Numbered from the stretch's first letter, positions 18,195-26,871 are shown. The stretch is 64,000 nt of DNA from an uncultured Rhodospirillaceae bacterium (GCA_964453225.1 CAYVNS010000003.1:29218-93217); one strand, 5' to 3'. Numbers and translations: made by a program. The notes: generated from the sequence alone by a model not told the origin.

Positions 18195-21100
18195 TTAGCT
18201 TATTTTCTTGGCGCCGGCGGTTGCCTGTGCTTCGAGCGTGCGGCTGACGGCGTCCGTTAAGCCATCCCCTGTCGCTTCGAGCTGCATCAGGATTTGGCCC
18301 AAGCTTCGCATCAGGTCTTCGCCTTGCGTTTTTAAGGCCGTTCTCATGCGGTCCGTGCGCTGCTGCATTTCATCGATGCTTTTGTTCATGCCGACGACCT
18401 GGTTGTGCGCGTCGCTGACGCCCTTGTTCAACGCGGTCGTTTGATCGTTGTAGATCTGGCCGATGCCGCGCATGATGCCCGCCGCCGTGTTGGCGCCGGC
18501 CGCCATGTTGCTCATTTGCGACTGAACGGCGGTGACGACTTCATCCAGCTTTTCGATGGCATGGACGCTGAGGTCGCCCGACAGGGCGCGCGTGTTTTCA
18601 ACCTTTTCGGCGATGGTGGACAGATGCGACAGGAGCTGTTGCAGATGTTCGAGCGCGCTGCCTTCTTGCGATTTGATGTCGGCGCCGGCCTGAGCCATGT
18701 GGTCGATCATTTGGTCGAACTTGCCGCTGAACGACGCCAGCAAGCGGCTGACCTCTTCCATCGACTGGCGCATTCTGTTCGTGCCCGCATCGACTTGCGC
18801 GACCGCCGTTGCGCCCGTTTCCTCAAACCGCTTGCTAACGCGTTCGACATCGGAGACCGCGCCGACCGTCGTGGAGCGCAGGCTTGTGCTTGTGCGTTCC
18901 AGTTGCGCCGTGATTTTCATCAGGCCGTTGCTGATTTCGTCGATCTGGCCTTGCAGCGCGCCACGGATGCTTTCCATGTGGTCGCGCAACGTATCGCCCG
19001 TCGTGACGATGCGGTTTTCGGCCCGCGTCGTCGCTTCGGAAATCGCCTCGATCTGCTTGACGATGCCTTCGCCGGCCTGCGCCAGGCGTCCGCCTGTCGT
19101 CGCCGCGCGCTGGTCGAGCTGGTCGAAATCGCGGACGAGGCGTTCCGCCGTCACCGTGGCTTCGTTTCTTAGGGTCAACAGGCGCTGGCCCGCTTCGGCA
19201 AGCGAATCGACGCCGACGCTGGCCTTTTCGATCAGATCGCGCTGTTCGCCCGAAAGCTTGGCCGTGCTTTGCTGCATGGCGGCCACTTGCTCGGCCAACA
19301 GCTGGTTGAAGCCGTTGAGGATGCGCCCGGCGTCTTCCGCAACGCCGCCGACGCGTTTCATCTCTTCGACCATATTGCTTCGCGTCGACGCGGTGACGGA
19401 GATGAAGCGATCCGCCGTGTCGATCATCGCCTTGTTGGCGTCCATCGACTGGGCTTTCAGCGCTCGCGCGGCCGTTTCAATATCGATGAGGCCTTCCTTC
19501 AACGTGGCGGGCAACTGCTTCGCCTCGTTCTTCAGGCTTTCCGAAACCTTCGCAAAGGCTTGTTCGGACTTGGCCAGGTTCGTGCGCAAGGTATCGTTCT
19601 GCATCGCCAGCGCCTTGGACGCGCCCAGCACATGCTCGGCCGCCTTATGCGACAGATCGGAGAGATGTTGCAGCTGGCCTTGCATCGCGCCTTTGACTTC
19701 TTCGATGCGCGACGCGGCCCGTTCGACGACTTCGTGGCCCGCTTTTTCCGTGGCGGTGATCGTATCGCGCAAGACAGCCAGGCGCGTTGTGGCGTATTCC
19801 GCCGCGTTGGCCAAGGCTTCCGTCTGCGTTTCGGCCTTGTCGCCCATCTCCCCCACCACGCGCAGGTGGGCGTGCATTTTTTCGCCGATGCTTGTCAGGC
19901 GGCCTTCGGATTGATCCAGCGTTTGCGACAAGGCTTCGGTTTGGCTGCGAATAAGCTCGGCGCCGTCTTTCGTGACTTCGGTGAAGCGCTTGGTCGTTTG
20001 ATCGAGCGACTGCACGGAATCGCGCAAATGGACGGCTTGTTCCCCGATGCCGGAAGCAGCGGAGACAATGCCGCGCAATTGTTGCTCGGCCTTCTGGCCT
20101 TCGTGATTCAGGGCCACCGCCTGCTGGGCGAAACCGCCGACCGACGCGGCGACATTGGCGAGCGTTTCCTGCGCCTTCGTTCCGATGGCGTCCATGCTGT
20201 GGGTGATGCTCGTCGCGCTTTCTTGCAGGCGCTCGGCCGTACGTTCCGCCGTGGCCGCCGTTTCGTTTTGCACGCCCATAAAGCGCGTGATGAGCCCGCC
20301 GATGGTATCGCGCTGCGAGTCCAACGCGATGGCAAGCGTTTTCTGCCGGTCGTCGATTTGCTGCAAGGCCTTGGCCAAAAGCCCCGCCTTTTCGCCGATG
20401 GATTGCTGAACCGAGGACAGCGTTTTTTCGGCCGAATATCCCGCTTCGTGCATATCATGCGCGCCGGCGGAGAGGCGGCCCAAAAGCGCGTCCAGGGTTT
20501 CGTTGGTTCGCTCGCCGTCGGCTTGCATGGACAGGCGCAGATCGTAGATCTGGCCGTGCAGGCTTGTCGTCGTCGAGAAGATGGTCTGCGCCTGTTCTTC
20601 GATGCGCTTGGCTTCGATATCGATGGCTTCGGCTTCCTTGGCGAAGGATTCCGTGGCCGTGCGGACGCTGCTAAGCGCGCTTTGCGCCCGCGTGTCGATA
20701 ACGTCGGCGCTGATGGCGATTTTCTGCGCGTCTTGCGTCAGGCGCGTGGTGAGGCGATCCGACGATTGGATCGTTTCCGCCTGCGCGTCGGCAAGCCGTT
20801 CGAACAGGGACTTGATGATCTCGCGCTGGGAATCGAGCGAGGTGCCGAGCTGTTGCTGGCGATCGTTGATCTGCTGAACCAGGGCGGCGAGCGCGGCGCA
20901 TTGCTGCGTCGCGTTGTTGCCGAGAGTCATCAGGGACATTTCCGTCGAGGAGCTGATGTCCCGCAGTTCAGCCGAACCCGCCGTAATCTTGCTGAGCAGC
21001 GAGCCGTAGACCGAGTTCGTGAGATCGCCCTCTTCGCGCAGCGTGGCGCACAACGCGCCCAGCTTTTCGTTGGCGCCGGAGGCGGACGTGACAATGACGC

Positions 21101-24100
21101 GCGCATCCTCTTCCGTTTGGCGCGCTTTCTTTTCGATGGATTCGGCCTCATAGGCGAACCCGGCCGTGGCTTTTTGCAGGCTGTTGAGGGCGTCGTGCGC
21201 GCGCCTGTCGATGGTGCCGACGCTGGTCGTGATTTGCGTCACGCTTTCGGTTAGACGATTGGCGGCGCGTTCGGCTACCGACGCCGTTTCCTCCTGAACG
21301 CCGGTAAGGCGCGACATCAAGCCGTCGATCACGTCGCGCTGGGCGTTAAGCGCCGTCGTCAGCGTGCGCTGGCGGTCGCCGATCTGATTCATGGAGACGT
21401 TCAATTCGCCCGCCTGCTGTTCGAGCGCGTGATGCAGCGTGGTGAGCGCGGCGTTTGTGCTGGCGCCGATGTCGCGCACGTCGCCGCCGCCTTTTGTCAG
21501 GCGTTCGAGCAGCATTTGCAGGCTTTCGCCCGCGCGTTCGCTTTCGTTTTGCAGGCTGAGGCGCAACTGGTGCGCCTGTTCCTGCAAGGCCGAGGTCGCC
21601 GTAAGGACGGTGCGCGCCTGCTGTTCCGCCGCCTGCGCGTTTTGAAGAAGGAGCGAGGCCTGATCGGTAAAGCCCATGCTGGCGATCTTGACGTTGCCGA
21701 TGGCGGCCTGGGATTTGTCGCCGACGTCGCCGACCTGGCGCTCGATATCCTTCAGCGCGCTGGACAGATAGGCGATGGTGCGCTCGGCAATGCCGGACGC
21801 TTCCGCGTGCGCGGCGCTGAGTTTGTCGAACAATTCGAACATCTGGACGCGTTGTTTCTCGGTGGATTCCGCCAAGACGCGTTGCTGCTCGCCGATTTGA
21901 TCGCCCACGACGGCCAACGTCGCCGCCTGCTGCGTAACGTGCGCGCCGAGCGTGGAGAGCGTTTTTTCCGCCCGTTCGGCCATGGCGTGCAGTTCCTGCG
22001 TGGATTTGTCGATCGTCTTCGTGCTGCCGGAGGCCATATCGTTAAAGCGCTGCGTCGCCTGATCGGCCCCGCGCGTCGCCGTGTCGGCCACCTGGCGCAG
22101 CTTGCCTTCCGCCCCCGTAAGACGCGCGACGGAATCTTCCAGGTGCGACAAAAGCAGGCTGTTTTCCTGTTCCATATTGACGCGGATGGACGAGGCTTGA
22201 TCGGTAAGCGTGCCCGTGGCTTTCGACAGCTGGTCGAGCAGACCCGCGATCTCTTGCCCGCCGTCGACGAGCTTGACCGTATGCTCGCCGAAGGTGCCGG
22301 CCGCGCCGACAATCGCGTCCGCCGCGGTTTGCGCCGCGTGGGTCATCGTGTTCGTGCGATCCTGGAACGCCGTGATGGTGTCGTCGAGCTTGGAGAGAGC
22401 CTTCTGGCTGTACATGAGCGAGGTTTCATGCGCCGCCGCCATTTTGGCGTTGAGCGTTGAGAGCGTTTCCGCCGCACGGTCGCTGCTGACGGAAATTTTG
22501 CCCGCGTGCATTTCGATTTTGGCCGCATCGGTGGCGATTTGATCGGCCTCGCGCTGCAGGGCGCTGTGCAGCGTGTCGACCTTAATCTGCGCCGCGTTGA
22601 CCGTTTGATCCATCTTATCGGTAACCTCGCTGTAACGCGTCGCGGCGCGATCCAAAAGGACATGCGCGGCGGAGGCGCGTTCGCGCACAATCTCGCCGAG
22701 CATCGTGAATTTTTGTTCAGCGCCGGTAAGATCGCTCGAAATGGCTTCGGTCTGCTGGCGCAGGAGCGTTTCGATACGCGACGCTTCCGCCGTAAGGGAA
22801 GAGGCGACATCCTTGACATGCGTTGCGGACGTCTTGGCCTTTTCCAGCATCTGGTAAGACTCTTCGCCCACGCTGCGCGCGGCCTGCTGTAAGCATTCGA
22901 GCGCATGCGCGGCCTGCCCGTCGAGACCTTGGGTTTCGCGTTTCAGGCTGTCGGACAAATCCGTGAACTGCGCCAGGGTCTGGCGCGCGGCGTCTTCCTG
23001 CGTCGCGCGGGCGGCGCCAAATCTTTCCTCGAGCGTTTCCAGCGCGAGCACGGTATCGGCGGTCGCGCGGCTCATTTGATGGCTCATGCCCTGAACGCGG
23101 GAATGGAAATCCTGCAGGCGGCCAACCTGGGTTGACAGGCCTTCGCCGTAAACGCCCAGCGATTGCAGCCCCTGCTCGGCGCTGGCACCAATGGCGTCCA
23201 CCGCCTTTTGCACCGGCGTAACGGCCTGCGCGGCGAAGCTTTGCATCTTTTGATCCGTCGTCGCCAACTGATTCTGCGTTTCGGACAAAAGGGTCAACAG
23301 GCCCGCTGAATGATCGCGCAAATTCTTGCTGGCGACTTCCGCCTGCGCTTGCAGTTTCTGCACCGCTTCGAGCAGAATCGCTTCGCTGGCGCGGGTTTTG
23401 CCCGAGAGATCGCTTTGCTGGCGGCCAAAATTCTCGGTGGCGGCGGAAATGGCGCGCGTGCTGAGCTGGACGGTCTCGCCAAGGCGCTGAACCATCTTTT
23501 CGTTCTGGGCCATGGCGTCGTTGATATCCTTGGCCAGCTTCTCGCCGACGCTTTGGGTCGCATCGCGCACGGAGAGGACGCGTTCGAGCACTTGCTGAAG
23601 GTTTTGCAAAGCGACGCTGGCGCGGGTTTCGACTTCCTTGCCGGCCTTGTTGGACGCGACGTTCAGTTCTTCGAACTGCGCCACATGGCGCGCTATTTCA
23701 TCGGCCATATTCTTCATATGGTCGTTGCTGTCGCTGGACAGGGTGCGCAAGCGCGTGAGCGCTCCTTCGTACTTGCCCGTCGTTTCATCCAGATGGGCGG
23801 CGATGGCTTCGGCATTCGCGCGCGCATCGTCATTAACGGCGGAGAAGCGCGCCATGGTGCCGTCGGTGCGCATATTAAGATCCGAGACCGATTTCTCGAA
23901 GGAATTGATGAACTCCGAGGTCGTGGAACCGACGCGGTCGATCAGATGGTTCAAATCGCTTTGGCGGCGGTCGAGGCTGGCGTCCACGTCCACAAGACGG
24001 CCCATAAAGCGCTCCATAAGCGTTTGGAGCCCATCTGCCTGATGCGCGAGATGGTCGCTGAGCTTATTGGCTTGCTCGTGCGCAAGCTGTTCGCTGGCGT

Positions 24101-25208
24101 AAAGGCGGTCGGCCACGCCGCGAAGGATGGATTCGGCTTCGCCGACACGCACGGGAAGCGTCGTGCTGAGATCTTCCAGCGTGCGGGTTTGAGCGTCGAG
24201 CGCGTGGGTCATGCGTTCGGACTCTTCGCGGGCGGCCGAGGCACGCTCTAAAAAGCGCGCGACGCTAAGATCGATTTTGCTCGAGAGGCCGCTGAGCGTT
24301 TCGCTGGCGGCTTCGGCGGCCGTCGAAAGGCTGGATTCTTGTAAACGGGACGTATCGGCAAGCCTTTGGGTATCGAGTTGGGCGCGTTCCAGCGATTGCG
24401 AGATTTGAACCGTTGCCTGCTCGACTTCCTCCAGCATTTTGGAGACCTGCTCCCCGATGCCTTCGACTTGACGCGCAACGCCGTCGCCGTTTTTCTGCAA
24501 TTTCCCGTCGAGAACGCGCAGCATCGTGAATTTATCGTCCATCATCTGTTCGATCTGGAACATGCTGCGGCGCACGACGTCCTGGATTTCCTTGACTTGC
24601 TGCGCGCTGACGTTTTCGAAGCGCTCCAGATCCGCCCGGTGCTGCTGCACGCGGTCCATGATGGCTTCCAGATCTTCCTGGCTGACGGATTGCGCGCTGC
24701 GCAAAAGGTCGATCTGCTCACGGATCGCCTGATTAAAACGGCGGATGCGCGCATCGGCCGCGCCGGACTCGCCCGTAATAAGCGTGAGCTGGCGGCGCAA
24801 GGGGTCGGCGACGGATTCAACGTCGGACGCGCGCTGCAAGTAAGCCGTGATCATCCAGATCATGGCGACGGGAGAAACGGATGCGGAAATGCCAATGGCC
24901 CAGTCGACCAGAGAAACGCCGCCCAGGGTACGCTCGGGGCCGGACGTGCCGATGATCGCGATAACGCCGGACACCCACGCAAGAGAAATGCCCAAGCCAA
25001 TCCAGAAAGGCAAAGACGATGCCTTGGATATTTTCGGAATCGATATCTTTTTTCCGGTCGGCGGCTTGATTGCTAGTGGTGCGGGCGTATGAGCAGGAGA
25101 AGAAGTTAGGGGAGTCTTCTGCAGGGCCATTTTGATCCTCGACATTCCGGTATTAATCCCGCAAAAAGCACATACGTTTCCCCGCTCGTTTCGAGAAGGG
25201 AACGACAT
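18195..25208 (-). CDS. Giant membrane-anchored coiled-coil protein (2,337 aa), two N-terminal TM helices, internal tandem repeats
   Basis: Uninterrupted 7,014-nt ORF. ATG at 25208; an alternative start MALQK at 25130 is preceded by GAGG. TM1 is FWIGLGISLAWVSGVIAIIG and TM2 is WAIGISASVSPVAMIWMITAYL. The remainder is Ala/Gln/Glu/Leu/Thr-rich helical sequence. A candidate hairpin terminator lies at ~18130-18170. Confidence 0.75.
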   Translation of the reverse strand: MSFPSRNERGNVCAFCGINTGMSRIKMALQKTPLTSSPAHTPAPLAIKPPTGKKISIPKISKASSLPFWIGLGISLAWVSGVIAIIGTSGPERTLGGVSLVDWAIGISASVSPVAMIWMITAYLQRASDVESVADPLRRQLTLITGESGAADARIRRFNQAIREQIDLLRSAQSVSQEDLEAIMDRVQQHRADLERFENVSAQQVKEIQDVVRRSMFQIEQMMDDKFTMLRVLDGKLQKNGDGVARQVEGIGEQVSKMLEEVEQATVQISQSLERAQLDTQRLADTSRLQESSLSTAAEAASETLSGLSSKIDLSVARFLERASAAREESERMTHALDAQTRTLEDLSTTLPVRVGEAESILRGVADRLYASEQLAHEQANKLSDHLAHQADGLQTLMERFMGRLVDVDASLDRRQSDLNHLIDRVGSTTSEFINSFEKSVSDLNMRTDGTMARFSAVNDDARANAEAIAAHLDETTGKYEGALTRLRTLSSDSNDHMKNMADEIARHVAQFEELNVASNKAGKEVETRASVALQNLQQVLERVLSVRDATQSVGEKLAKDINDAMAQNEKMVQRLGETVQLSTRAISAATENFGRQQSDLSGKTRASEAILLEAVQKLQAQAEVASKNLRDHSAGLLTLLSETQNQLATTDQKMQSFAAQAVTPVQKAVDAIGASAEQGLQSLGVYGEGLSTQVGRLQDFHSRVQGMSHQMSRATADTVLALETLEERFGAARATQEDAARQTLAQFTDLSDSLKRETQGLDGQAAHALECLQQAARSVGEESYQMLEKAKTSATHVKDVASSLTAEASRIETLLRQQTEAISSDLTGAEQKFTMLGEIVRERASAAHVLLDRAATRYSEVTDKMDQTVNAAQIKVDTLHSALQREADQIATDAAKIEMHAGKISVSSDRAAETLSTLNAKMAAAHETSLMYSQKALSKLDDTITAFQDRTNTMTHAAQTAADAIVGAAGTFGEHTVKLVDGGQEIAGLLDQLSKATGTLTDQASSIRVNMEQENSLLLSHLEDSVARLTGAEGKLRQVADTATRGADQATQRFNDMASGSTKTIDKSTQELHAMAERAEKTLSTLGAHVTQQAATLAVVGDQIGEQQRVLAESTEKQRVQMFELFDKLSAAHAEASGIAERTIAYLSSALKDIERQVGDVGDKSQAAIGNVKIASMGFTDQASLLLQNAQAAEQQARTVLTATSALQEQAHQLRLSLQNESERAGESLQMLLERLTKGGGDVRDIGASTNAALTTLHHALEQQAGELNVSMNQIGDRQRTLTTALNAQRDVIDGLMSRLTGVQEETASVAERAANRLTESVTQITTSVGTIDRRAHDALNSLQKATAGFAYEAESIEKKARQTEEDARVIVTSASGANEKLGALCATLREEGDLTNSVYGSLLSKITAGSAELRDISSSTEMSLMTLGNNATQQCAALAALVQQINDRQQQLGTSLDSQREIIKSLFERLADAQAETIQSSDRLTTRLTQDAQKIAISADVIDTRAQSALSSVRTATESFAKEAEAIDIEAKRIEEQAQTIFSTTTSLHGQIYDLRLSMQADGERTNETLDALLGRLSAGAHDMHEAGYSAEKTLSSVQQSIGEKAGLLAKALQQIDDRQKTLAIALDSQRDTIGGLITRFMGVQNETAATAERTAERLQESATSITHSMDAIGTKAQETLANVAASVGGFAQQAVALNHEGQKAEQQLRGIVSAASGIGEQAVHLRDSVQSLDQTTKRFTEVTKDGAELIRSQTEALSQTLDQSEGRLTSIGEKMHAHLRVVGEMGDKAETQTEALANAAEYATTRLAVLRDTITATEKAGHEVVERAASRIEEVKGAMQGQLQHLSDLSHKAAEHVLGASKALAMQNDTLRTNLAKSEQAFAKVSESLKNEAKQLPATLKEGLIDIETAARALKAQSMDANKAMIDTADRFISVTASTRSNMVEEMKRVGGVAEDAGRILNGFNQLLAEQVAAMQQSTAKLSGEQRDLIEKASVGVDSLAEAGQRLLTLRNEATVTAERLVRDFDQLDQRAATTGGRLAQAGEGIVKQIEAISEATTRAENRIVTTGDTLRDHMESIRGALQGQIDEISNGLMKITAQLERTSTSLRSTTVGAVSDVERVSKRFEETGATAVAQVDAGTNRMRQSMEEVSRLLASFSGKFDQMIDHMAQAGADIKSQEGSALEHLQQLLSHLSTIAEKVENTRALSGDLSVHAIEKLDEVVTAVQSQMSNMAAGANTAAGIMRGIGQIYNDQTTALNKGVSDAHNQVVGMNKSIDEMQQRTDRMRTALKTQGEDLMRSLGQILMQLEATGDGLTDAVSRTLEAQATAGAKKIS

Positions 25209-25560
25209 TGCCTTTTAGGGGCTAGATACTAAGGTTTATAACATAACAGTTTTTTGGGTCAGAATGGAAGCGTTAACAGAGATTAAGTGAAAAAATCTGT
25301 TAGCAACTTCAAAGGCGATACCCCTCGCAGCATTGATACGAATCCGGAATAATTGTGCACTCTCACCAATTTTTTGTGCGCAGCAAAGGTGCAGCATTTT
25401 TTAAGCAGGGCACTAAGACTGGCTGTTGGGGGTGGGACGCGGCTGACAGACTAGGGATAGGGCTTGGCCTTTGTTTTCGACGACAGTTGCGCCGGCCATT
25501 CAGGCGGGTTAACATTTGCCCGTGGACACCTTGCCTCCCCCTTCACGCCGGTTGCCGCTC

Positions 25561-26871
25561 ATGCTGCGGTTCAAGCGTCTTTTGCCGCGCAGCCTGTTTG
25601 GCCGCATGCTTTTGATTTTCGTTTTGCCGACCTTTATCATGTTGGCGGCCGCGACCTATGTCTTTTTCGAAAGGCACTGGTACACCGTTACCAAGCGGAT
25701 GACCTATGCGCTGGCCGGCGATGTCGCCTTTATCGTCGAGCTTCTGGAAAACAGCAAAAACATGGATACTTTCGAAGGCGTGAAGACCCTTGCCTACGAA
25801 AAGATGAATCTGACGGTCACCTTCATGCCGGGACAGACCTTGCCGCCGCGCACGTCACGGTATTTGGGACCTATCGGCGTCATTCTGAAACATGCCTTAA
25901 ACGACAATCTGTCATACAGCTATGTCCTTGATATGTCTTATGCGCCGGAGACCATCAGCGTGAAAGTGGGGGTTCCCGAAGGCGTTTATTCGATCCTTTC
26001 GCCGGAGCGGCGCGTTTACACGCCAACCACGAAGGTATTCATTATCTGGTTGACGGGGAGCTCTTTGCTTCTTACGACCATCGCCTTGATCTTTATGCGA
26101 AATCAGATCCGCCCTGTACGAAGGCTGGCCGAGGCGGCCGAGGCCATCGGCAAGGGGCGCGAGGTGCCCTGGTTTAAGCTGGAGGGGTCTTCCGAAGTAA
26201 GACAGGCTGGCTCGGCCCTGATGGTTATGCGGGATCGGCTTAAACGGCAGATTACCCAGCGGACGGCCATGCTGGCGGGCGTTTCGCACGATTTGCGCAC
26301 CCCCCTGACGCGCATGCGCCTTCAGATCGAACTTATGGGCGCAACCCCCGATACGGGCGAGCTTTTGTCTGACGTGGCCGAGATGGAGGATATGCTGAAC
26401 GCCTATCTGGCTTTTGCGCGAAGCGAAGAAGCCGAAGTGGCCCAGCCCGTTGATTTGCAGGAATTTTTATCCGAAATGGTCGCAACCGCACGCCGGCAGA
26501 ATCCGCATATCTCTTTGGCGGCCCCGGAAGGCATTAAGGTGATCATGCGCCGCAATGCCATGAAGCGGTGTTTAGGGAATTTGATCAATAACGCGCTTCG
26601 TTACGGGGCGCATGCGGAAGTTAAGGCCTCTGTGGCGGATCAGATCGCCACGATTACGCTGGACGACGACGGGCCCGGCATCGAAGCCGCGCGGCGCGAG
26701 GAAATGTTCCGGCCCTTTACGCGCATCGAGGAATCGCGCAATCCGGCAACGGGTGGCGTTGGGCTTGGCCTGACGATCGCCCGCGACATTGCCCGCTTTC
26801 ACGGCGGGGATGTTATTTTAGAAGATAGTCCTTTGGGCGGACTAAGGGCCCGGGTTTGGATTCCCGTGTAG
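25561..26871 (+). CDS. EnvZ/CenK-like sensor histidine kinase (2 TM, periplasmic loop, HAMP, HisKA, HATPase)
   Basis: MLRFKRLLPRSLFGRMLLIFVL aligns with the EnvZ N-terminus. H-box GVSHDLRTPLTRMRL; G-boxes DDDGPGI and GGVGLGL. No adjacent response regulator. Confidence 0.8.
   Translation: MLRFKRLLPRSLFGRMLLIFVLPTFIMLAAATYVFFERHWYTVTKRMTYALAGDVAFIVELLENSKNMDTFEGVKTLAYEKMNLTVTFMPGQTLPPRTSRYLGPIGVILKHALNDNLSYSYVLDMSYAPETISVKVGVPEGVYSILSPERRVYTPTTKVFIIWLTGSSLLLTTIALIFMRNQIRPVRRLAEAAEAIGKGREVPWFKLEGSSEVRQAGSALMVMRDRLKRQITQRTAMLAGVSHDLRTPLTRMRLQIELMGATPDTGELLSDVAEMEDMLNAYLAFARSEEAEVAQPVDLQEFLSEMVATARRQNPHISLAAPEGIKVIMRRNAMKRCLGNLINNALRYGAHAEVKASVADQIATITLDDDGPGIEAARREEMFRPFTRIEESRNPATGGVGLGLTIARDIARFHGGDVILEDSPLGGLRARVWIPV

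Follow-up and report, generated by a model that had tools for sequence, protein, structure and literature searches.

A 171-residue tandem repeat array of variable copy number in a giant, putatively membrane-anchored helical protein of uncultured Alphaproteobacteria

The window analyzed in this study is a 64,000-nucleotide (nt) stretch of DNA from an uncultured Rhodospirillaceae bacterium (GCA_964453225.1 CAYVNS010000003.1:29218-93217), and its subject is a giant open reading frame (ORF) on the minus strand, whose product carries a central array of tandem repeats. An earlier reading of this sequence (the original prediction) had proposed at least three consecutive units of ~170 amino acids (aa) within the gene; self-comparison of the protein and an ungapped stack of its units revealed four, each of exactly 171 aa. 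Across the relatives of the protein, the array holds 1 to 6 (perhaps 7) such units, with the units at both ends fixed and the middle units duplicated or deleted in register many times.

The features of the gene are collected in Table 1, in which residues are counted from the first ATG of the ORF. This ATG of the mechanical ORF lies at 25208, and M27 lies 26 codons further on, at 25130. Because the database protein P0001, which is identical to the window protein and has 2,311 aa, begins at M27, and because M27 hardly varies across the aligned family, the true start is probably M27 at 25130, giving a 2,311-aa product. Codons 1-26 (window 25130-25208, MSFPSRNERGNVCAFCGINTGMSRIK) are then probably untranslated.

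From its N-terminus, the protein comprises a basic tail (6 K/R, 0 D/E), two predicted transmembrane helices separated by a short loop (TM1, aa 66-88, LPFWIGLGISLAWVSGVIAIIGT; TM2, aa 100-124, LVDWAIGISASVSPVAMIWMITAYL), and a long rod. Since the tail is basic, the positive-inside rule suggests that the rod is cytoplasmic and that the protein is anchored in the inner membrane. The invariant positions of the anchor in the family are PFW, W, G, P and WM..AY.QRA.D, and the adjoining part of the rod contains the invariant juxtamembrane motif PLRRQL..ITGESGAA.ARIRRFNQAIREQ (within aa 125-440). Among orthologues with four units, identity amounts to 73% over aa 131-440, 67% at the C-terminus and 60% in unit 1, and falls to the lowest values of the protein, 46-50%, in the middle units. 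Unit 0 precedes unit 1 by 207 aa in the homologues, the final third of unit 4 is diverged, and a conserved C-terminal end (...SLGQILMQLE...KKIS) follows the copy at aa 2178-2326. The composition of the protein is biased, with A at 14%, L at 10% and S, T, Q and E at about 8% each, and the rod is net acidic (314 D+E vs 234 K+R). A search of the whole protein against Pfam and NCBIfam returned no family match, just sub-threshold ATG17-like and SMC coiled-coil matches.

Table 1. Features of the giant gene, given in window coordinates, with the evidence for each (HMM, profile hidden Markov model of the repeat unit; i-E, independent E-value).
Feature	Residues (aa)	Position (nt)	Strand	Evidence
Giant ORF, 7,014 nt	2,337 aa from first ATG	18195..25208	minus	ORF list, translation
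Two-helix membrane anchor (predicted)	66-124	24837..25013	minus	Kyte-Doolittle 19-residue peaks 2.12 and 1.65
Most conserved part of the rod	125-440	23889..24836	minus	73% mean identity among 4-unit orthologues, vs 43-60% in other rod parts
Degenerate unit copy	535-668	23205..23606	minus	unit HMM 25.9 bits, i-E 3.8e-10
Degenerate unit copy	711-862	22623..23078	minus	unit HMM 30.2 bits
Degenerate unit copy, "unit 0"	898-1045	22074..22517	minus	unit HMM 60.1 bits, i-E 1e-20
Repeat unit 1, conserved first unit	1102-1272	21393..21905	minus	self-BLAST offsets 171/342/513 aa, HMM 191.7 bits
Repeat unit 2, variable-number middle type	1273-1443	20880..21392	minus	self-BLAST, ungapped stack, unit HMM, orthology
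Repeat unit 3, variable-number middle type	1444-1614	20367..20879	minus	self-BLAST, ungapped stack, unit HMM, orthology
Repeat unit 4, conserved last unit	1615-1785	19854..20366	minus	self-BLAST, ungapped stack, unit HMM, orthology
Degenerate unit copy	1793-1934	19407..19832	minus	unit HMM 23.6 bits
Degenerate unit copy	1973-2131	18816..19292	minus	unit HMM 44.4 bits
Degenerate unit copy	2178-2326	18231..18677	minus	unit HMM 40.1 bits

To detect the repeats, we cut the translated ORF into 120-aa pieces and compared each piece with the whole protein by BLAST. Off-diagonal matches fell at exactly 171, 342 and 513 aa, the best of them with an E-value of 1.8e-29; aa 1201-1319, for example, matched aa 1543-1661 at 44% identity. 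Self-BLAST of the uncut protein yielded the identity match alone, and it was the fragmentation of the query that brought out the repeats. Four 171-aa units stack without gaps over aa 1102-1785, with pairwise identities of 26-33%. The unit HMM, built from 248 near-full-length family units, scored these four central units at 131-192 bits and recovered six further copies at 24-60 bits, as against 8.5 bits for the best of 200 shuffled sequences in which composition was kept within 171-aa blocks; an off-diagonal signal above the level of low-complexity coiled coil is thus present. The protein from aa ~535 to its C-terminus is made up of some ten copies derived from a single helical module (roughly 171-200 aa), and the exact 171-aa period is kept in the central four copies only.

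The starts given in the original prediction (~21400, ~20880 and ~20370) coincide with those of units 2-4 within about 10 nt, and its overall extent (19850-21420) holds for these three units and misses unit 1, which lies upstream of that limit. It also placed more degenerate copies on either side of its units, and the example it quoted (SSIRVNMEQENS...) falls in aa 898-1045, one of the six additional copies found by the unit HMM. Its further claim that the repeats are diverged in DNA and old agrees with the nucleotide comparisons: unit-to-unit identity is 41-53%, and identity at third codon positions is 36-48%, vs 32% expected from composition. The only blastn alignments between units were short (66-73% identity; offsets of 513 and 1026 nt), and Tandem Repeats Finder reported just trivial 7-12-nt repeats in the gene, the units being too diverged for this program and their 513 nt exceeding its period limit. 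Given a protein identity between units of no more than 26-33% and third-position similarity near saturation, the unit duplications in the window genome are, judged from these comparisons, confirmed as old.

We retrieved 119 homologues of the window protein at E <= 1e-3, all from metagenomes or metagenome-assembled genomes (MAGs) and about 1,800-2,900 aa in length. Where source labels are present, they read Alphaproteobacteria, "uncultured Rhodospirillaceae" or "Bdellovibrionales", and the closest genome records are those of "uncultured Rhodospirillaceae". The number of central units in the complete proteins ranges from one (2 proteins) through two (32), three (51), four (15) and five (4) to six and seven (1 each). 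Consecutive strong units are spaced by exactly 171 aa in 204 of 228 cases, and the flanks are constant among the homologues, at ~1,100 aa on the N-terminal and ~600 aa on the C-terminal side. The first and last units are orthologous in every homologue and enclose 0 to 5 middle units of the u2/u3 type, in the order u1-(u2/u3)n-u4, for example u1-u4, u1-u2-u4, u1-u2-u2-u3-u4 and u1-u2-u2-u2-u3-u4. The gain and loss of middle units therefore shifts the length of the protein in 171-aa steps with constant flanks, and protein length follows 1672 + 170.5 x n, where n is the number of units (r = 0.93). The proposal that copy number sets the length of the molecule is thereby sustained over 1-7 units for residue number, which is the quantity computed here; the physical length of the rod is derived from a predicted continuous helix.

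A neighbour-joining tree built from the conserved flanks of 102 complete proteins requires a minimum of 28 changes in the number of units, or 34 unit steps. The best unit-to-unit identity within a protein forms a continuum (100, 100, 100, 80, 77, 73, 65, 61%, and so on down to about 33%), so that duplications of all ages exist. At L012 9001-16578 (P0009), a 1,054-nt tandem duplication of two units shows 99.62% identity; its four mismatches make an assembler artefact unlikely, and in some lineages, as this case demonstrates, expansion of the array continues. At L013 1176-9824 (P0003), a tandem duplication of 1,614 nt shows 100% identity, is in frame, spans 538 aa, or 3.15 units, and is out of register with the units, which creates a hybrid unit; this could be either a very recent event or an assembly artefact.

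The strictness of the 171-aa step finds a counterpart in the hydrophobic periodicity of the array. Its power spectrum has one sharp peak, at 3.56 residues (power 69, vs 9 in the best shuffle), and at 171/48 = 3.5625 residues per turn the phases of units 1-4 are 45, 46, 45 and 59 degrees. One unit thus equals 48 whole turns of a hydrophobic seam, and the four units share one phase. As the unit is a whole number of turns, gain or loss of a whole unit leaves the seam in register; a change by whole units would be the only length change that keeps the seam in phase, which would explain the strict 171. The same periodicity is coherent over the whole rod (aa 130-2337, 3.567, power 115), which has only 3 prolines beyond aa 136. 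Plotted on a helical wheel, the apolar seam spans ~120 degrees, its 30-degree core sector is 83% L/I/V/M/F (20 Leu, 19 Ile), and charged residues are almost missing from 270-360 degrees. By these features, the seam looks like that of a coiled coil or helical bundle and not like a wide lipid-binding face.

The structure of the unit was modelled with AlphaFold2. From a 28-row alignment of units 1 and 2, the prediction consisted of two long helices, interrupted once at KGGGD (aa 1240-1243), with a predicted local distance difference test score (pLDDT) of 74 and a predicted template modelling score (pTM) of 0.23; a Foldseek search of the PDB with this model found no match. From a 49-row alignment of aa 1231-1426, the prediction was a single 194-residue helix running through KGGGD at pLDDT 91.7 (87-92 in the five models). 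The unit consensus has three Gly-enriched positions, at about 23, 76 and 137-138, with spacings of 53, 61 and 57 residues. These positions raise the alternative that each unit folds back into a compact antiparallel three-helix bundle of 3 x 57 residues, an oversized spectrin repeat, so that the array would be a row of discrete domains adding ~8 nm per unit. In its favour, 171 is 3 x 57, 57 residues correspond to 16 seam turns, the Gly-enriched positions lie ~57 residues apart, and the first model breaks at the third of them in unit 1. We nevertheless consider such bundles unlikely, since the unbroken helix of the second model passes all Gly positions in five models, the phase of the seam is continuous across units, and the first model has no bundle-like match. 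Nor is a 57-residue sub-repeat convincing, the best signal in a profile self-comparison of the unit having P about 2e-4 at a shift of about 107. With a predicted single helix that spans more than one unit, and with no 57-aa repeat, a spectrin-like bundle repeat was rejected as a classification of the unit.

A second alternative places the rod on the membrane, as amphipathic helices of the apolipoprotein or perilipin type that lie on the inner leaflet, with the repeats setting the membrane area covered and not the length of a rod. Some orthologues have weak precomputed matches to the apolipoprotein family PF01442, the protein appears to be membrane-anchored, and GPR (a giant helical protein of Agrobacterium considered below) has been classed as apolipoprotein-like, with helices of this kind proposed for it (PMC8262873). 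The window protein itself, however, has no PF01442 match at E <= 1, its periodicity of 3.56-3.57 differs from the 11/3 = 3.67 of apolipoprotein 11/22-mers, its apolar face is narrow with a Leu/Ile core typical of a coiled-coil seam, and its rod is net acidic, all of which makes this alternative improbable. Membership in PF01442 was also rejected on its own account, and the autocorrelation of the protein peaks at 171, 342 and 513 aa rather than at 11 or 22.

We regard as equally hard to sustain the possibility that the rod is an intramolecular antiparallel hairpin like the arm of SMC or Rad50, with the array at its apex and the units pairing with one another. The array does lie near the middle of the rod, and the SMC model TIGR02169 gives a weak coiled-coil match of 25.9 bits; this score is far under the 729.4-bit cut-off, and neither an ATPase head nor a hinge was found. 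Moreover, the flanks of the array are very unequal (about 970 vs 550 residues), proteins with odd (51) and even (32+15) numbers of units are both common, and no break is predicted inside the array. An identity as SMC or chromosome segregation ATPase was likewise rejected, as the TIGR02169 match covers coiled-coil positions only and a Walker head and hinge are missing. Finally, that the units are a chance likeness of low-complexity coiled-coil segments or an assembly artefact can practically be dismissed: although the composition is biased and all related sequences come from metagenome assemblies, chance similarity is refuted by E-values to 1e-29 at exact multiples of 171 aa, by the low scores of the shuffles and by the orthology of the same units in more than 100 independent assemblies, and units that are 26-33% identical cannot be assembler duplications.

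The original prediction had described the repeats as interaction or spacer modules. The low conservation of the middle units (46-50%, vs 73% in the juxtamembrane region) fits a spacer better than a specific interaction module, and so favours the second part of that description over the first.

The nearest described kind of protein is GPR/RgsE, the growth pole ring protein of Rhizobiales, which combines two transmembrane helices at its N-terminus with a continuous helix of about 1,700 aa (PMC8262873, PMC7327166). In Agrobacterium and Sinorhizobium, it localises to the growth pole, forms a six-focus ring of 200 nm, and is needed for polar growth and rod shape (PMC8262873, PMC7327166). Distant homologues of RgsE have been reported in Emcibacterales and Rhodospirillales (Krol et al., PMC7327166). 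For our comparisons, the GPR sequence was an optical character recognition (OCR) copy from Fig. S3 of PMC8262873, comprising 2,099 of 2,115 residues.

An exhaustive HMMER search with the N-terminal profile of the window family returned 790 representatives of a wider superfamily at E <= 1e-3. Among them is P0247 (E = 1.1e-16), a close relative of GPR that is 42% identical to it in the N-terminal 211 aa and 56% identical in the C-terminal domain, and more than 80 of the superfamily matches carry a GPR-type C-terminal domain. In profile-profile comparison, the anchor of the window family matched the anchors of 47 proteins with a GPR-type C-terminus at 99.7% probability (E = 2.6e-26), and those 47 anchors matched GPR and P0247 at 97% probability (E = 8.8e-11). 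On the strength of this chain of intermediates, together with a direct match at 80% probability, the anchor module, the only part that aligns with GPR, is probably homologous to that of GPR. In the opposite direction, BLAST with the GPR C-terminus recovered more than 80 superfamily members, none of them from the window family, and tblastn with the same query against the window was also empty.

Other searches returned less. The HMM of the N-terminal 381 aa, run directly against GPR, produced only weak, high-bias helical matches in the rod, and the 171-aa unit HMM had no match in GPR. A word-indexed search returned 16 fragments only with the N-terminal profile, and metagenome proteins only with the distant relative P0181. 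Plasmid sequences searched by tblastn with the anchor region gave no match. A C-terminal motif shared with GPR (L..SL.QI..QLE) was sought and not found, and the window protein has no proline-rich stretch. From these sequence comparisons, we file the window protein as a separate subfamily of a GPR-related superfamily and not as a GPR orthologue.

Some further features of the superfamily were recorded. Every one of the 29 distant relatives checked (P0145-P0276) has very strong, coherent hydrophobic periodicity of 3.55-3.58 along its whole rod (power 36-194); the value for GPR, 3.651, lies outside this range. A GPR-type C-terminal domain is present in most of the shorter members (1,100-1,500 aa). 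In GPR itself, ~aa 620-980 (PMC8262873 Fig. S3) repeat in tandem every 22 and 66 residues (autocorrelation 0.35-0.37). The word "repeat" is not used in the main text of PMC8262873, and the GPR papers treat apolipoprotein-like domains only (PMC8262873, PMC7327166).

Taken together, our preferred reading, to which we give a probability of roughly 60%, is that the protein is a membrane-anchored coiled-coil scaffold with a register-preserving array of spacers that can be tuned by copy number. The gene product would be an inner-membrane-anchored cytoplasmic rod, almost entirely alpha-helical, of a superfamily that includes GPR/RgsE of Agrobacterium and Sinorhizobium. The rod may form one continuous helix that pairs with other chains in a long-pitch coiled coil of about 330 nm, in which each unit would add about 25 nm at ~0.15 nm per residue in the predicted helix. 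Repeated unequal recombination between neighbouring units would add or remove whole units, so that the array could act as a spacer of adjustable copy number and, by analogy with GPR, might set the reach or size of a membrane-attached scaffold.

Several observations weigh against this reading. The first AlphaFold2 model breaks at KGGGD and it is the second model, from a deeper alignment, that passes straight through; both were run on single chains, with pTM of 0.23-0.36. Every homologue comes from assemblies, and the 7-unit case rests solely on the perfectly identical duplication in P0003, a possible assembly artefact. The direct comparison of the window-family anchor with GPR reached just 80% probability (E = 1.4e-5), over about 110 columns and with the OCR copy of GPR. 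The rods also differ, that of GPR having 22/66-residue repeats of the apolipoprotein type and a periodicity of 3.651, and that of the window protein having 171-residue units and 3.5625-3.567. In addition, P0247 passes the PF01442 threshold (105.5 bits vs a cut-off of 90), whereas the window protein has no match at E <= 1, and the window protein lacks both the 110-aa proline-rich region and the C-terminal domain (EFR..V.RY...FE...GK.Y) of GPR. That C-terminal domain is essential for GPR function (PMC8262873). Finally, the Rhodospirillales are reported to be without the other Rgs partners (Krol et al., PMC7327166), and the cellular role may therefore differ from that of RgsE.

A more far-reaching version of the spacer interpretation, which we offer tentatively and consider rather doubtful, treats the array as a natural molecular ruler: uncultured alphaproteobacterial lineages would time and again have used it to adjust, by ~25 nm per step and across ~150 nm in all, how far a membrane-attached GPR-like scaffold reaches or how wide it is. 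To our knowledge, GPR/RgsE is the sole growth-pole organiser known in Rhizobiales, and we know of no account of how its helical rod builds a 200-nm ring. If the ruler interpretation is true, the size of a bacterial cytoskeletal structure could be read directly from a gene. The family is a ready-made series of proteins that differ only in rod length, with copy numbers from 1 to at least 6, and it makes the question of whether rod length sets structure size directly testable. A continuous coiled coil of ~330 nm, if real, would be very long for a bacterial protein. Our literature search found no published description of the 171-aa repeat or of its variation in copy number; what is new is the repeat system and its evolutionary behaviour, and what was already known is the giant, anchored, GPR-like helical scaffold as a kind of protein.

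The analysis also corrects database names given to members of the family, which include "chromosome segregation ATPase", "methyl-accepting chemotaxis protein", "DNA repair exonuclease SbcCD ATPase subunit", "ABC-type transporter Mla subunit MlaD" and "archaellum component FlaC". These names are unsupported by domain searches and look like coiled-coil false positives. Some of the MAGs that encode a family protein (L003, L005 and L008) were deposited as "Bdellovibrionales bacterium"; because the NCBI taxonomy places Micavibrio in Bdellovibrionales, these may be Micavibrio-like, predatory alphaproteobacteria.

Within the window, the giant gene stands alone. Upstream and divergent from it, across a gap of ~300 nt, lies a sensor histidine kinase gene (HAMP, HisKA, HATPase_c; 25516-26871, plus strand), with infB, ylxR and nusA beyond it; downstream are a satP/yaaH-type gene, rsmI and an LppC-like gene. 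A conserved partner gene was not found, as the neighbours differ among the window, L010 and L012. Because the pairing with the kinase gene is not seen beside the homologues in L010 and L012, a functional link between the kinase and the giant gene is doubtful. Long ORFs also occur on the plus strand, antisense to the giant gene (window 18405-25076), for example at 19269-21254 (661 aa), 18697-19914 (405 aa) and 21429-22460 (343 aa), and are interpreted as shadow ORFs that reflect the strong bias of the coding strand, where the AT skew is about -0.25. The 64-kilobase window contains no tRNA and no Rfam match.

Comparison with known systems places the protein among long helical scaffolds of several kinds. 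Scy and FilP of Streptomyces are coiled-coil scaffolds of the polarisome that are linked to polar growth and have a long non-heptad rod repeat, 51 residues in Scy. By description, they share with the window protein the character of long bacterial coiled-coil scaffolds with a non-heptad, long-period repeat, and differ in being soluble rather than membrane-anchored and in having no described copy-number variation of a 171-aa unit. The apolipoprotein A1/A4/E family (PF01442) also has long amphipathic helices, and some orthologues match it weakly, but the window protein does not, and both its periodicity and the width of its apolar face are different. Spectrin repeats, of ~106 aa, fold back into three-helix bundles; as in spectrin and the EzrA-like bacterial spectrin repeats, tandem helical units here set the length of a rod and vary in number among homologues, whereas the window unit, at 171 aa, is predicted to form a stretch of one uninterrupted helix. 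The closest resemblance in overall design is to GPR, with a similar size of about 2,100-2,300 aa, a putative two-helix anchor marked by hydropathy peaks at aa 66-88 and 100-124, and about 1,700-2,200 aa of nearly uninterrupted alpha-helix in both proteins, as suggested here by the scarcity of prolines, the two AlphaFold2 segments and the coherent periodicity of the rod.

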